NCBI RefSeq assembly: GCF_003334315.1
Contig: NZ_QOWR01000010.1
DNA: 64,000 nt
Source of the DNA: Escherichia coli
GTDB lineage: Bacteria; Pseudomonadota; Gammaproteobacteria; Enterobacterales; Enterobacteriaceae
Strand: one strand, 5' to 3'
Below the pieces are notes generated by a model. The model saw only the letters and a program-made list of their open reading frames with translations, was not told the DNA's origin and searched no databases. Shown one piece after another: positions 21,537 through 26,537 of the stretch (its first letter is position 1; each line of letters begins with the position of its first letter). Position numbers and translations under genes: made by a program.

Positions 21537-21697
21537 AAAAATATATACAGCCAATTAATAAATAAAATATATAAGTTATGAATGCGGTGGCTGAATAAAG
21601 CTATTTTTATTCATCAAGAAAATAGCCATACTGACGCATTCAATGGATATTGATATTCACTACAGATATTGTTCGCAGCAGACAGGATGTATTTAAT

Positions 21698-21973
21698 ATG
21701 CCAACAGTTCTCTCTCGCATGGCGATGCAACTCAAAAAAACAGCCTGGATAATTCCCGTCTTCATGGTTTCGGGATGCTCATTATCTCCGGCAATCCCGG
21801 TGATCGGCGCTTATTATCCCAGCTGGTTTTTCTGCGCCATTGCCAGCCTTATTTTGACGCTCATCACGAGGCGAGTTATTCAGCGGGAAAATATCAATCT
21901 GGCATTTGTCGGAATTATTTATACCGCCCTTTTTGCTCTCTACGCCATGCTGTTCTGGCTGGCATTTTTCTAA
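21698..21973 (+). CDS. ytcA: Small membrane lipoprotein (91 aa), AaeX-like partner of the efflux pump
   Basis: ATG at 21698 (MPTVLSRMAMQLKKTAWIIPVFMVSGCSLSP...) with lipobox VSGC and two hydrophobic segments. Lies immediately upstream of mdtN. Confidence 0.75.
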   Translation: MPTVLSRMAMQLKKTAWIIPVFMVSGCSLSPAIPVIGAYYPSWFFCAIASLILTLITRRVIQRENINLAFVGIIYTALFALYAMLFWLAFF

Positions 21974-21991
21974 TCTATTTGAGACGCGCTC

Positions 21992-23023: not shown

Positions 23024-25074
23024 TGAGCGCGCTCAACTCCCTGCCATTACCGGTGGTCAGGCTGCTGGCGTTCTTTCATGAAGAGTTAAGCGAGCGGCGA
23101 CCAGGTCGCGTGCCGCAGACCGTGCAACTCTGGGTAGGCTGCCTGCTGGTGATTCTGATCTCGATGACCTTTGAGATCCCTTTTGTGGCGTTATCGCTGG
23201 CAGTGCTGTTTTACGGTATTCAGTCGAACGCGTTTTACACCAAATTTGTCGCGATCTTGTTTGTGGTTGCCACGGTGCTGGAGATCGGCAGCCTGTTTTT
23301 GATCTACAAATGGTCATACGGCGAACCGTTGATCCGATTGATCATCGCCGGACCGATCCTGATGGGCTGCATGTTTTTGATGCGCACCCATCGCTTGGGG
23401 CTGGTCTTTTTCGCCGTCGCCATTGTCGCTATTTACGGGCAAACCTTCCCCGCCATGCTCGACTATCCGGAAGTGGTCGTGCGCTTAACGCTGTGGTGTA
23501 TCGTTGTTGGCCTCTATCCAACCTTGCTGATGACGTTAATCGGCGTGCTGTGGTTTCCCAGTCGTGCCATTTCGCAAATGCATCAGGCGCTTAATGATCG
23601 GCTTGATGATGCCATTAGTCACCTGACAGACAGCCTCGCACCGCTACCCGAAACGCGGATTGAAAGAGAGGCGCTGGCGCTACAAAAACTCAATGTCTTT
23701 TGCCTCGCGGACGATGCCAACTGGCGAACTCAAAACGCATGGTGGCAAAGCTGCGTGGCAACGGTAACCTACATTTACTCGACGCTGAATCGCTACGATC
23801 CCACCTCTTTTGCTGATTCTCAGGCAATTATTGAATTCCGACAAAAATTAGCTTCAGAAATCAACAAGCTGCAGCATGCCGTTGCTGAAGGTCAGTGCTG
23901 GCAAAGCGACTGGCGGATCAGTGAAAGTGAAGCGATGGCGGCACGGGAATGTAACCTGGAGAATATCTGCCAGACGTTGTTACAACTGGGTCAGATGGAC
24001 CCGAATACGCCGCCAACGCCCGCAACCAAACCGCCATCAATGGCCGCCGATGCTTTTACCAATCCAGACTATATGCGCTACGCGGTAAAAACGCTGCTCG
24101 CCTGTTTGATCTGTTACACCTTTTACAGCGGCGTGGACTGGGAAGGCATTCACACCTGTATGCTGACATGCGTGATCGTCGCTAACCCAAATGTCGGTTC
24201 GTCGTACCAGAAGATGGTGCTGCGTTTTGGCGGGGCCTTTTGCGGCGCGATTCTGGCGCTGTTATTCACGCTACTGGTCATGCCCTGGCTGGACAATATT
24301 GTCGAATTGCTGTTTGTGCTGGCACCGATTTTCCTGTTGGGCGCATGGATTGCCACCAGCTCTGAACGCTCTTCTTATATCGGCACACAGATGGTGGTCA
24401 CCTTCGCGCTCGCCACGCTCGAAAACGTTTTTGGCCCAGTGTACGACCTGGTGGAAATTCGCGATCGCGCCCTGGGTATCATCATTGGTACCGTGGTGTC
24501 CGCGGTGATTTACACCTTTGTCTGGCCTGAAAGTGAAGCGCGCACACTGCCGCAAAAACTGGCTGGCACGCTGGGTATGTTAAGTAAAGTAATGCGGATC
24601 CCACGCCAGCAGGAAGTCACGGCTCTGCGCACTTATCTGCAAATTCGTATCGGTCTGCATGCGGCGTTTAATGCCTGTGAAGAGATGTGCCAACGCGTGG
24701 CGCTGGAGCGTCAACTGGACAGCGAAGAACGCGCATTACTGATTGAACGTTCGCAAACGGTTATTCGTCAGGGCCGCGATCTTCTTCACGCCTGGGATGC
24801 CACCTGGAACTCGGCGCAGGCGCTGGATAACGCACTACAGCCGGACAGAGCAGGTCAGTTTGCCGACGCCCTGGAGAAATACGCTGCCGGTCTGGCAACC
24901 GCACTCAGCCGTTCTCCTCAAATAACGCTTGAAGAGACACCCGCCTCTCAGGCCATCCTGCCCACCTTATTAAAACAGGAGCAACACGTCTGCCAGCTTT
25001 TCGCCCGCTTGCCAGACTGGACAGCCCCGGCATTAACGCCCGCCACGGAACAGGCACAAGGAGCCACGCAATGA
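23023..25074 (+). CDS. mdtO: Inner-membrane efflux transporter, FUSC/AaeB-like
   Basis: 683 aa with two hydrophobic blocks separated by a soluble region. 1-nt overlap with mdtN. Confidence 0.9.
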   Translation: MSALNSLPLPVVRLLAFFHEELSERRPGRVPQTVQLWVGCLLVILISMTFEIPFVALSLAVLFYGIQSNAFYTKFVAILFVVATVLEIGSLFLIYKWSYGEPLIRLIIAGPILMGCMFLMRTHRLGLVFFAVAIVAIYGQTFPAMLDYPEVVVRLTLWCIVVGLYPTLLMTLIGVLWFPSRAISQMHQALNDRLDDAISHLTDSLAPLPETRIEREALALQKLNVFCLADDANWRTQNAWWQSCVATVTYIYSTLNRYDPTSFADSQAIIEFRQKLASEINKLQHAVAEGQCWQSDWRISESEAMAARECNLENICQTLLQLGQMDPNTPPTPATKPPSMAADAFTNPDYMRYAVKTLLACLICYTFYSGVDWEGIHTCMLTCVIVANPNVGSSYQKMVLRFGGAFCGAILALLFTLLVMPWLDNIVELLFVLAPIFLLGAWIATSSERSSYIGTQMVVTFALATLENVFGPVYDLVEIRDRALGIIIGTVVSAVIYTFVWPESEARTLPQKLAGTLGMLSKVMRIPRQQEVTALRTYLQIRIGLHAAFNACEEMCQRVALERQLDSEERALLIERSQTVIRQGRDLLHAWDATWNSAQALDNALQPDRAGQFADALEKYAAGLATALSRSPQITLEETPASQAILPTLLKQEQHVCQLFARLPDWTAPALTPATEQAQGATQ

Positions 25075-26537
25075 TCAATCGTCAACTTTCACGTCTGCTG
25101 TTGTGCAGCATTCTCGGCAGCACGACGCTGATTTCCGGCTGTGCCCTGGTACGTAAGGATTCTGCACCTCATCAACAGCTCAAACCGGAACAAATCAAAC
25201 TGGCCGACGATATTCATCTTGCCAGCTCCGGCTGGCCGCAGGCGCAGTGGTGGAAACAACTCAATGACCCGCAGCTGGATGCGCTGATCCAACGGACGCT
25301 AAGTGGTTCACACACCCTCGCCGAAGCGAAACTGCGGGAAGAAAAAGCGCAGTCCCAGGCCGATTTGTTAGATGCCGGTTCACAATTACAGGTCGCAGCG
25401 TTAGGGATGCTCAACCGCCAACGTGTCTCGGCGAACGGCTTTTTAAGCCCTTATTCAATGGATGCGCCAGCACTGGGTATGGACGGGCCGTACTATACGG
25501 AAGCCACAGTAGGTTTGTTTGCCGGACTGGATCTTGATTTGTGGGGTGTGCATCGCTCAGCGGTTGCCGCCGCCATTGGCGCGCATAATGCCGCGCTGGC
25601 AGAAACCGCAGCAGTAGAGCTATCGCTGGCCACGGGCGTAGCGCAGCTTTATTACAGTATGCAGGCCAGCTATCAGATGCTCGATCTGTTAGAACAAACT
25701 CACGATGTGATTGATTACGCGGTGAAAGCGCACCAGAGTAAAGTGGCGCACGGTCTGGAAGCGCAAGTGCCTTTCCACGGCGCGCGGGCACAGATTCTGG
25801 CGGTCGATAAACAAATTGTTGCCGTCAAAGGGCAAATCACCGAAACGCGAGAATCTCTGCGTGCATTGATTGGCGCGGGAGCCAGCGATATGCCGGAGAT
25901 CAGACCGGTGGCATTACCGCAAGTCCAGACCGGCATTCCGGCGACACTCTCTTATGAGTTGCTCGCCAGACGCCCGGATCTGCAAGCCATGCGCTGGTAT
26001 GTTCAGGCGTCATTAGATCAGGTGGATTCCGCGCGGGCGTTGTTCTATCCGAGCTTTGATATCAAAGCGTTTTTCGGTCTGGACTCCATCCATCTGCATA
26101 CCTTATTCAAAAAAACCAGTCGCCAGTTCAACTTCATCCCGGGTCTGAAATTGCCGCTGTTTGACGGTGGACGGTTGAATGCCAATCTCGAAGGCACGCG
26201 CGCCGCCAGCAACATGATGATTGAACGTTACAACCAGTCAGTACTGAACGCGGTGCGTGACGTTGCCGTCAACGGCACGCGTCTGCAAACGCTCAACGAC
26301 GAGCGAGAAATGCAGGCTGAACGCGTGGAAGCCACGCGCTTTACCCAGCGCGCTGCCGAGGCCGCCTATCAGCGCGGCTTAACCAGCCGCTTACAGGCCA
26401 CCGAAGCCCGGTTGCCAGTGCTTGCCGAAGAGATGTCATTACTGATGCTGGACAGCCGCCGGGTGATCCAAAGCATTCAGTTGATGAAATCGCTGGGCGG
26501 CGGGTATCAGGCAGGTCCCGTCGTCGAGAAAAAATAA
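25071..26537 (+). CDS. mdtP: Outer membrane efflux factor (TolC/OprM family lipoprotein)
   Basis: 488 aa with lipobox LISGC. Confidence 0.9.
   Translation: MINRQLSRLLLCSILGSTTLISGCALVRKDSAPHQQLKPEQIKLADDIHLASSGWPQAQWWKQLNDPQLDALIQRTLSGSHTLAEAKLREEKAQSQADLLDAGSQLQVAALGMLNRQRVSANGFLSPYSMDAPALGMDGPYYTEATVGLFAGLDLDLWGVHRSAVAAAIGAHNAALAETAAVELSLATGVAQLYYSMQASYQMLDLLEQTHDVIDYAVKAHQSKVAHGLEAQVPFHGARAQILAVDKQIVAVKGQITETRESLRALIGAGASDMPEIRPVALPQVQTGIPATLSYELLARRPDLQAMRWYVQASLDQVDSARALFYPSFDIKAFFGLDSIHLHTLFKKTSRQFNFIPGLKLPLFDGGRLNANLEGTRAASNMMIERYNQSVLNAVRDVAVNGTRLQTLNDEREMQAERVEATRFTQRAAEAAYQRGLTSRLQATEARLPVLAEEMSLLMLDSRRVIQSIQLMKSLGGGYQAGPVVEKK

Follow-up and report, generated by a model that had tools for sequence, protein, structure and literature searches.

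The Escherichia coli ytcA-mdtNOP operon probably encodes a FUSC-type efflux system with the small lipoprotein YtcA as an AaeX-like accessory subunit

The subject of this work is ytcA-mdtNOP, a four-gene operon contained in a 64,000-nt window of Escherichia coli contig NZ_QOWR01000010.1 (all coordinates given below are positions in this window, and all of the operon genes lie on the + strand). Taken together, the results are best explained if the operon, whose identity is clear, encodes a pump of the FUSC family and if its first product, YtcA, is an accessory subunit of the AaeX type, a reading to which we assign a probability of about 80%. The physical association of YtcA with the pump, taken as a claim of its own, appears moderately likely, and we infer the lipidation and topology of YtcA as well as the transport mechanism and the substrates of MdtNOP.

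It is virtually certain that positions 21698-26537 of the window correspond to the ytcA-mdtN-mdtO-mdtP operon of the E. coli chromosomal core genome. When the stretch 21400-26700 was compared by megablast with 5,426 complete E. coli genomes, the region was found in 5,420 of them, with at least 80% of the query covered in 5,391, and it was chromosomal and nearly always present as a single copy per genome; eight or more chromosomes were 100% identical to it. The RefSeq annotation of one such identical chromosome shows yjcS, ytcA, mdtN, mdtO, mdtP and fdhF at positions equal to those of the window, and the layout of K-12 MG1655 is also identical (b4083, b4622, b4082, b4081, b4080 and b4079), ytcA being b4622, 'putative lipoprotein YtcA', whose product shares 90 of 91 residues with that of the window. 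The operon is therefore already annotated, its gene names and the label "YtcA family lipoprotein" being present in RefSeq and Pfam, and the mdtNOP genes have also been known as yjcR/Q/P and sdsRQP. The NCBIfam equivalog cutoffs were exceeded for MdtN, MdtO and MdtP, which argues that the operon is not a chance feature. According to the list of open reading frames, mdtN and mdtO overlap by 1 nt and mdtO and mdtP by 4 nt, in agreement with the tight coupling of the four genes noted in the initial annotation of this DNA. Two details of that annotation had to be corrected. The start of ytcA was placed at 21650, which is the first TTG of the maximal frame 21650..21973, and the annotated start is the ATG at 21698; moreover, ytcA was described as fused to the pump, which is misleading because the gene is a separate first cistron located 18 nt before mdtN and is only adjacent to it.

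ytcA is a real protein-coding gene, and its product has the sequence of a lipoprotein. A Shine-Dalgarno AGGA (21685-21688) sits 9 nt before the ATG, and the ACAGGA block and the start codon are essentially invariant in 14 orthologous loci of 8 genera, Escherichia, Citrobacter, Klebsiella, Kluyvera, Salmonella and Pluralibacter among them. Residues 1-26 (21698-21775) form a predicted lipoprotein signal peptide with a basic n-region (R7, K13 and K14), the h-region TAWIIPVFM and the lipobox V24-S25-G26-C27, which fits the pattern [LVI][ASTVI][GAS]C, the Cys27 codon being located at 21776-21778. The 91-aa lipoprotein with a VSGC lipobox proposed initially was thus confirmed, since the ATG at 21698 gives 91 aa and Cys27 is invariant in an alignment of 46 diverse family members, as are G37, P41, W43 and W87. 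Residues 30-91 match Pfam PF17090 (E 1.6e-15); NCBIfam contains no model for YtcA, and a PDB search with the protein gave no relative.

A word-indexed protein search with YtcA returned sequences from Enterobacteriaceae only, many of them frameshifted entries, and it was an exhaustive profile search that revealed a wider family. The profile, built from 12 enterobacterial homologues after exclusion of the frameshifted P0094, P0095 and P0097, matched 474 clusters (50% identity) at E<=0.001 among 1.84 billion representative proteins. The YtcA-family members among the matches listed are 75-140 aa long and contain a lipobox, the motif xxPSIxVLGAYFPxWLFC and then two hydrophobic helices. In at least 124 of 135 representatives a Cys lies about 10 residues ahead of the glycine of the GAYFP motif, and a standard lipobox is found in 108; the residue at position +2 varies (Ser, Ala, Thr, Arg and others), with Asp being rare. 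A few members, like AaeX, lack a signal peptide altogether (e.g. P0219). Two long proteins, P0100 and P0102 (1321 and 1953 aa), match the profile 10-13 times each; as a relative of YtcA, P0100 was rejected as spurious because it is the translation of a tandem repeat, the motif WFFC recurring along it.

When the family alignment was modeled with AlphaFold2 (AF2), a mean predicted local distance difference test (pLDDT) score of 80.9 was obtained, with block means of 76-95 over the mature part and of 88-95 over residues 41-90. The model places a signal helix at residues 4-25 and predicts for the 65-aa mature protein a beta-hairpin (32-41) followed by two transmembrane helices (42-63 and 71-90) linked by the basic loop RRVIQRENIN. 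YtcA would thereby conform to a pattern in which about 60 aa form a hairpin of two helices, helix 1 being preceded by a G-x-x-F/Y-P motif and the loop being basic.

This pattern is that of AaeX, the first product of the E. coli aaeXAB operon, and YtcA is very probably homologous to it. Using the MG1655 sequences as reference, mature YtcA and full-length AaeX showed 38% identity over 63 aa in a BLASTP comparison (E 8e-6), the alignment extending from the residue after Cys27 (AaeX residue 2) to the C-terminus, with the GAYYP of YtcA aligned to the GLSFP of AaeX before helix 1 and the RRV of the basic loop common to both. Because hydrophobic proteins can match through composition alone, the comparison was controlled with shuffled sequences. 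The Smith-Waterman score of the pair was 75, whereas 5000 shuffles of AaeX gave a mean of 28.6, a standard deviation (SD) of 5.3 and a maximum of 56, so that the real score lies 8.7 SD above the mean. Likewise, with a wide hidden Markov model of the YtcA family, 13 of 15 AaeX orthologues outscored the best of 3000 shuffled AaeX sequences, and, of 46 YtcA-family members, 13 matched the Pfam family DUF1656 at E<=0.001, a number that rose to 31 at E<=0.1 (best value 2.3e-7). For comparison, the match between AaeX and YdhI of E. coli, whose membership in DUF1656 is accepted, is weaker (E 7e-4). The initial annotation had compared ytcA with AaeX in arrangement; the 38% identity, the shuffle controls and the shared gene order raise this likeness to probable homology.

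The gene order points in the same direction. A scan of GTDB with one genome per species returned 32 YtcA loci, all from Enterobacterales, and each of the 32 has the gene of an MdtN homologue 6-22 nt downstream of that of YtcA, with homologues of MdtO and MdtP next wherever contig and gene integrity permit. These loci split into two clades, one orthologous to the E. coli operon (MdtO 64-96% identical) and one paralogous, found in Klebsiella, Raoultella, Tatumella, Phytobacter, Yokenella and Enterobacter, in which identities are about 60% for MdtN, 48% for MdtP, 40% for YtcA and 35% for MdtO. Klebsiella grimontii has one operon from each clade and Citrobacter sp. wls619 has two ortholog-type copies. 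Seven distant metagenomic loci with downstream sequence, on contigs of 37-63% G+C and with YtcA homologues 28-48% identical, extend the range; in five of them (L035, L036, L037, L042 and one more contig) the genes for YtcA and the periplasmic adaptor, or membrane fusion protein (MFP), are followed by a gene of FUSC size, and L039 and L044, whose contigs are short, retain at least the MFP gene. Overall, an MFP gene comes directly after the YtcA homologue in 39 of 39 loci with downstream sequence (32 from GTDB and 7 metagenomic). The gene for the outer-membrane factor (OMF) is last, first or absent in the metagenomic loci. The order small protein, MFP and FUSC is also that of the other MFP-coupled FUSC systems of E. 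coli, aaeXAB and ydhIJK, and cofitness of DUF1656 genes with the MFP and FUSC genes that accompany them has been reported, DUF1656 being named a pump component there (Price et al., bioRxiv 10.1101/072470).

Some individual loci showed signs of decay. Of the two operon copies of Citrobacter sp. wls619 (L006:7001-8400 and L015), one is decayed, having lost mdtO and carrying mdtN linked to the end of mdtP, and the other is intact; the copy of Kluyvera genomosp. 3 (L016) is fragmented, possibly through assembly errors. We also observed that MdtO diverges much faster than MdtN and MdtP, both in the paralogous clade and in the metagenomic locus L042 (31% versus 71% and 60%); in RND systems the subunit conserved best is usually the transporter.

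MdtO, the presumed transporter of the system, is assigned by sequence and model to the FUSC proteins, as an internally duplicated member made of a tandem of two ALMT-like units. It scored 1369.6 bits against the NCBIfam MdtO equivalog (cutoff 821), the only other models matched being those of YccS/YhfK, and in Pfam it matched FUSC (PF04632, E 1.5e-17), FUSC_2 (PF13515, E 1e-7), weakly ALMT, and nothing else. A PDB search with the single sequence gave no relative; a profile of 22 homologues gave as sole match the soybean anion channel GmALMT12/QUAC1 (7w6k, E 6.9e-4), over the C-terminal membrane domain. The AF2 model of MdtO (pLDDT 77.6, predicted TM-score 0.68) was compared with the PDB by Foldseek, and the top structures were ALMT12, ALMT1 and ALMT9, with probabilities of 0.92-1.00 and target-normalised TM-scores of up to 0.49, in alignments of about 360-400 columns that correspond to half of MdtO. 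In agreement with a duplication, the N- and C-terminal halves of MdtO matched each other by hhalign (probability 92.9%, E 3.8e-7, 169 columns) with a concordant pattern of helices in the model, and each half is predicted to combine a helical membrane domain with a second helical domain, C-terminal to it and cytoplasmic. Plant ALMT/QUAC1 anion channels (PDB 7w6k, 7vq7 and 8zte) are the best and only convincing profile and fold matches of MdtO, and share with it the succession of a membrane domain and a cytoplasmic helical domain; ALMT is homodimeric with one unit per chain, whereas MdtO has two and is partnered by an adaptor and an outer-membrane channel. With its FUSC domain, internal duplication and ALMT kinship, MdtO belongs in the FUSC / PET (aromatic acid exporter, TC 2.A.85) family.

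The two remaining products would complete a system that spans the envelope. MdtN exceeded the cutoffs of its own model (NF007785, 535.1 bits, cutoff 376) and of the EmrA/EmrK model (TIGR00998, 419.7 bits, cutoff 390.8) and stayed below that of the AaeA equivalog (143.7 bits, cutoff 400), with 29% identity to AaeA (E 2e-35), and it is classified from these matches as a periplasmic adaptor of the EmrA/EmrK subfamily. MdtP passed NF007390 (1023.7 bits, cutoff 597) and the outer_NodT model TIGR01845 (272.8 bits, cutoff 210.05) and carries the N-terminal lipobox L-I-S-G-C24, which supports its earlier description as a TolC-like lipoprotein. The earlier view of the system as an AaeAB-like pump is supported, with reservations. 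The FUSC/AaeB-type assignment of MdtO stands, given the Pfam FUSC match and the ALMT-like fold, but MdtO is very distant from AaeB (24% identity over 157 aa) and MdtN fits the EmrA/EmrK model rather than that of AaeA.

On this basis, the following arrangement is proposed. The operon would encode an envelope-spanning efflux system of the FUSC / PET kind, in which MdtO would be the inner-membrane transporter and, because each of its halves resembles one ALMT protomer, a single chain may form the permeation path that ALMT builds as a dimer. MdtN would act as an EmrA/AaeA-type periplasmic adaptor anchored through one transmembrane helix, and MdtP as a NodT-type, lipid-anchored outer-membrane channel. 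YtcA would be the counterpart of AaeX (aaeXAB) and YdhI (ydhIJK), that is, a membrane hairpin of two helices and roughly 60 residues, in a branch where a lipoprotein signal peptide was presumably gained. Once it has been removed, the acylated Cys27 would be located at the inner membrane on its periplasmic face, together with a short beta-hairpin that is conserved (SPAIPVIGAYYP). The helix ends are both predicted to be periplasmic (N-out/C-out) and the basic RRV loop cytoplasmic, because the acylated Cys would sit on the periplasmic leaflet and the RRVIQR loop follows the positive-inside rule. The protein would stay in the inner membrane as a fourth, accessory subunit packed against MdtO and/or the MdtN anchor, held there by its hydrophobic helices and not by an Asp at position +2, as suggested only by the two helices themselves; it may aid assembly or stability and would not be part of the transport path.

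Compared with the known systems, AaeXAB (yhcRQP), which mediates the efflux of aromatic carboxylic acids in E. coli, has the same order of small two-helix protein, MFP and FUSC genes, and MdtO and AaeB are both FUSC proteins. AaeX differs from YtcA in having neither signal peptide nor lipobox, and the aae operon contains no OMF gene and is accompanied by the divergent LysR regulator aaeR, whereas ytcA-mdtNOP includes mdtP and has no adjacent regulator. The three-gene core with the small protein first is likewise that of YdhIJK of E. coli and of other DUF1656-MFP-FUSC operons, from whose DUF1656 proteins the YtcA family is set apart by its own PSIxVLGAYFPxWLFC motif and lipoprotein signal and by its separate Pfam family. 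A functional analogy, and nothing more, is offered by AcrZ, a small accessory protein of the RND pump AcrB, in that a small inner-membrane protein is proposed to act on the transporter by binding and tuning and not by carrying substrate. AcrZ has one helix, is encoded elsewhere in the genome and has no sequence or fold relation to YtcA, which has two helices and a predicted lipid anchor and is always encoded by the first gene of the operon core.

Several observations weigh against YtcA as an AaeX-type pump subunit. E. coli YtcA matches DUF1656 (PF07869) only marginally, over model positions 4-32 of 56 (E 0.0042, 17.5 bits), no pairwise match between YtcA and YdhI was obtained by BLASTP, and the hhalign comparison of the YtcA family with a shallow AaeX profile, favourable in its E-value of 2e-4, gave a probability of just 46%, for which reason the shuffle controls and the Pfam cross-match count described above were added. 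The +2 residue of YtcA is Ser, which normally sends a lipoprotein to the outer membrane. An experimental report on complex membership, lipidation or translation of YtcA was looked for in the literature and none was found; the protein appears there as a lipoprotein in one simulation study only (PMC7139219), and the literature search gave no paper naming PF17090 or the YtcA family. Regarding selection, the proportion of nonsynonymous differences (pN) in ytcA was below that of synonymous differences (pS) in every comparison, which speaks for a translated gene, but the dN/dS ratios were 0.19-0.6 for ytcA, 0.01-0.035 for mdtN, 0.05-0.06 for mdtP and 0.06-0.13 for mdtO; ytcA is thus under the weakest purifying selection of the four genes, and its protein is the one evolving fastest.

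The most direct objection comes from a deletion strain. MdtNOP phenotypes concern puromycin, acriflavine and tetraphenylarsonium chloride (PMC11762307), and also pyrrolomycin and armeniaspirol (PMC8672772, which cites Valderrama 2019). As described in the latter source, a ΔtolC strain with an 8,855-bp deletion of alsRBACEK-yjcS-ytcA-mdtN showed an armeniaspirol minimal inhibitory concentration of >64 ug/ml and was fully resistant to pyrrolomycin via mdtOP; the authors explained this resistance by mdtOP expression driven from the als promoter, and sensitivity was restored by a further deletion of mdtOP. Because the resistance was obtained without ytcA and mdtN, YtcA and MdtN would be dispensable for that phenotype under mdtOP overexpression. 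The initial annotation had proposed that its view of ytcA should be given up if deletion of the gene had no effect on pump phenotypes; this is in part what PMC8672772 describes, for overexpressed mdtOP.

The principal alternative, which we regard as unlikely although it has to be taken seriously, is therefore that YtcA is not a structural subunit but a dispensable or regulatory accessory, which might, for example, assist assembly as a chaperone, modulate the range of substrates or be an evolutionary remnant kept mainly by linkage. It would agree with the deletion strain and with the weak purifying selection on ytcA, and also with the truncated or frameshifted ytcA variants present in databases, e.g. 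from Shigella. Nevertheless, the phenotype of the deletion strain came from artificial overexpression from Pals and not from native conditions, and the motif residues are invariant in the 46 diverse members. Furthermore, the strict placement of ytcA just before the MFP gene, which is maintained in two paralogous clades and in distant contigs of high and low G+C, and the cofitness of related DUF1656 genes with their pumps in transposon screens (10.1101/072470) argue for a subunit.

A further proposal, which goes beyond the AaeX-type subunit reading and which we consider improbable, is that yjcS-ytcA-mdtNOP forms one module against anionic surfactants or sulfated organic anions, with YjcS as sulfatase, ALMT-like efflux and YtcA as an obligatory fourth component. 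The gene linkage is what suggests it: yjcS (19492-21489), which codes for a secreted linear primary-alkylsulfatase, is the gene immediately ahead of ytcA in 11 of the 17 enterobacterial loci that are orthologous, and a gene for a 47%-identical alkylsulfatase (L042:3208-5250) precedes a ytcA-MFP-FUSC-OMF operon on a metagenomic contig of 63.5% G+C. If this were true, an obligatory, lipid-anchored YtcA of the AaeX type would set this clade of FUSC pumps apart from the AaeXAB and YdhIJK type.

Upstream of ytcA, the DNA raised a question about the role of the ytcA frame itself. ytcA-mdtNOP forms a single transcription unit with an intrinsic terminator at either boundary, that of yjcS (-25.3 kcal/mol, z -4.9, with a T tract, equalled by 0 of 200 shuffles), which had been recognized at the same place in the initial annotation, and one after mdtP (-18.1 kcal/mol, z -2.35). 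As had also been noted, no strong promoter is apparent ahead of ytcA, and a consensus scan for sigma-70-like promoters on the + strand of 21000-27000 found none. Pairs of -10 and -35 elements sought by eye near CATACT (21627-21632) and GATATT (21665-21670) gave no convincing fit, nor did boxes for ArgR, FNR, MarA and BaeR sought in the same way upstream of ytcA, and no promoter or regulator is claimed. The alignment of loci from 8 enterobacterial genera revealed in this region the conserved block ATAAGTTATGAATGCGG at 21571-21587, a conserved inverted repeat GCTATTTT-N11-AAAATAGC at 21600-21626 followed by CATACTG, and a conserved stretch ATTCAC...GATATTGTTCGCA...ACAGGA at 21654-21690 that holds the Shine-Dalgarno sequence. 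When the repeat was evaluated as an RNA helix, 75.5% of the cells were paired, as in the mean of the shuffles, and a change on both sides was seen in one pair; there is no RNA-type covariation beyond the shuffles and hence no sign of RNA structure. An Rfam scan of 21.4-26.6 kb gave no match.

These non-coding blocks (21571-21697) are better conserved than the YtcA protein in the aligned orthologous loci (L004-L017). In addition, three Escherichia comparisons gave a pS of 0.03-0.14 for ytcA versus 0.17-0.39 for mdtN, mdtO and mdtP, that is, 2-5 fold lower, in comparisons that are not independent and with only about 65 synonymous sites in ytcA, and nucleotide identity to three other Escherichia lineages reached 98-99% over 21592-21816 and 21892-22115 versus 85-95% elsewhere, which could be due to constraint at the nucleotide level, to a tract of recombination or to the noise of a small sample. 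The low synonymous divergence, the identity peaks and the upstream blocks conserved across genera would fit a ytcA frame that serves mainly as a leader for mdtNOP expression, by translational coupling or as a nucleotide element, with the peptide being secondary. We consider this improbable, since the protein motif is conserved far past the nucleotide level, in the 474 clusters, at 28-48% identity and from 37% to 63% G+C, and since the lipobox and the two hydrophobic helices are maintained in a protein homologous to AaeX; the small and non-independent sample also limits what the Escherichia values can support.

The literature suggests a different class for the transporter, with a system working like EmrAB-TolC or AcrAB-TolC: MdtNOP was placed under the major facilitator superfamily (MFS) in PMC8277102, MdtO was termed an MFS pump in PMC11762307, and it was termed an RND protein and AcrB homologue in PMC8672772. 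The membership of MdtN in the EmrA/EmrK adaptor subfamily goes with this view, and EmrAB-TolC and EmrKY-TolC are, like MdtNOP, tripartite with an adaptor anchored by a single helix. However, MdtO matched no MFS or RND model in Pfam or NCBIfam, Foldseek gave for MFS structures probabilities of <=0.16 with TM-scores of about 0.1 and no RND structure among the matches listed, the profile search of the PDB and Foldseek both favored ALMT, and the two halves of MdtO show mutual homology as in FUSC proteins. Because MdtO consists of two ALMT-like units, it is neither an MFS transporter (PMC8277102 and PMC11762307) nor an RND/AcrB homologue (PMC8672772), and an MFS or RND identity is very improbable. 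MdtNOP accordingly differs from the Emr systems in its transporter, which is FUSC and not MFS, in its outer-membrane factor, which is the dedicated MdtP in place of TolC, and in having a fourth, small protein. Finally, that ytcA is a spurious open reading frame, or an unrelated lipoprotein gene merely adjoining the pump, as its small size and the missing NCBIfam model might suggest, is equally hard to credit, being contradicted by the family size, the invariant residues, the conserved ribosome-binding site and start codon, and the strict synteny.

The features of the operon and its boundaries are listed below.

Table 1. Coordinates of the ytcA-mdtNOP operon and of its flanking elements in the window
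Feature	Position	Strand	Description and basis
yjcS intrinsic terminator	21498..21536	+	12-bp G+C-rich stem (21498-21527) plus T tract
AT-rich intergenic region, presumed promoter/5' leader	21537..21697	+	about 160 nt, 31.5% G+C
ytcA	21698..21973	+	91 aa; Pfam Ytca (E 1.6e-15), RefSeq annotation, AF2 model
mdtN	21992..23023	+	343 aa; predicted periplasmic adaptor (MFP), one N-terminal transmembrane helix; NF007785
mdtO	23023..25074	+	683 aa; predicted inner-membrane FUSC / PET (ArAE) transporter; Pfam, AF2, Foldseek
mdtP	25071..26537	+	488 aa; predicted NodT-type outer-membrane factor lipoprotein; NF007390, TIGR01845
Post-mdtP intrinsic terminator	26544..26580	+	11-bp stem (26544-26569) plus T-rich tail; ahead of fdhF

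Elsewhere in the window, the frame of fdhF (26735-28882) is broken by an in-frame TGA at 27152-27154 (selenocysteine), where Rfam places SECIS_2 (27147-27201, 87 bits). Further Rfam matches at 44-320 (+), 29670-29853 (-), 40388-40459 (-) and 47698-47838 (+) comprise three tandem and three further copies of naRNA4 (REP-type), plus the small RNA sraL.

For the field little changes with respect to the operon itself, and what is clarified is the YtcA-AaeX homology, the generality of the YtcA-MFP-FUSC module and the family assignment of MdtO. The relabelling of MdtO from an MFS or RND protein to a duplicated, ALMT-like FUSC protein would alter which mechanistic models and inhibitors are relevant to the pump. 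A PDB search revealed no solved structure for a FUSC-type pump or for a DUF1656/YtcA protein, and ytcA-mdtNOP, which includes an outer-membrane factor, would lend itself well to structural work. YtcA would be no orphan but the lipid-anchored counterpart of AaeX and YdhI, so that E. coli would contain three paralogous systems composed of a small protein, an MFP and a FUSC transporter.

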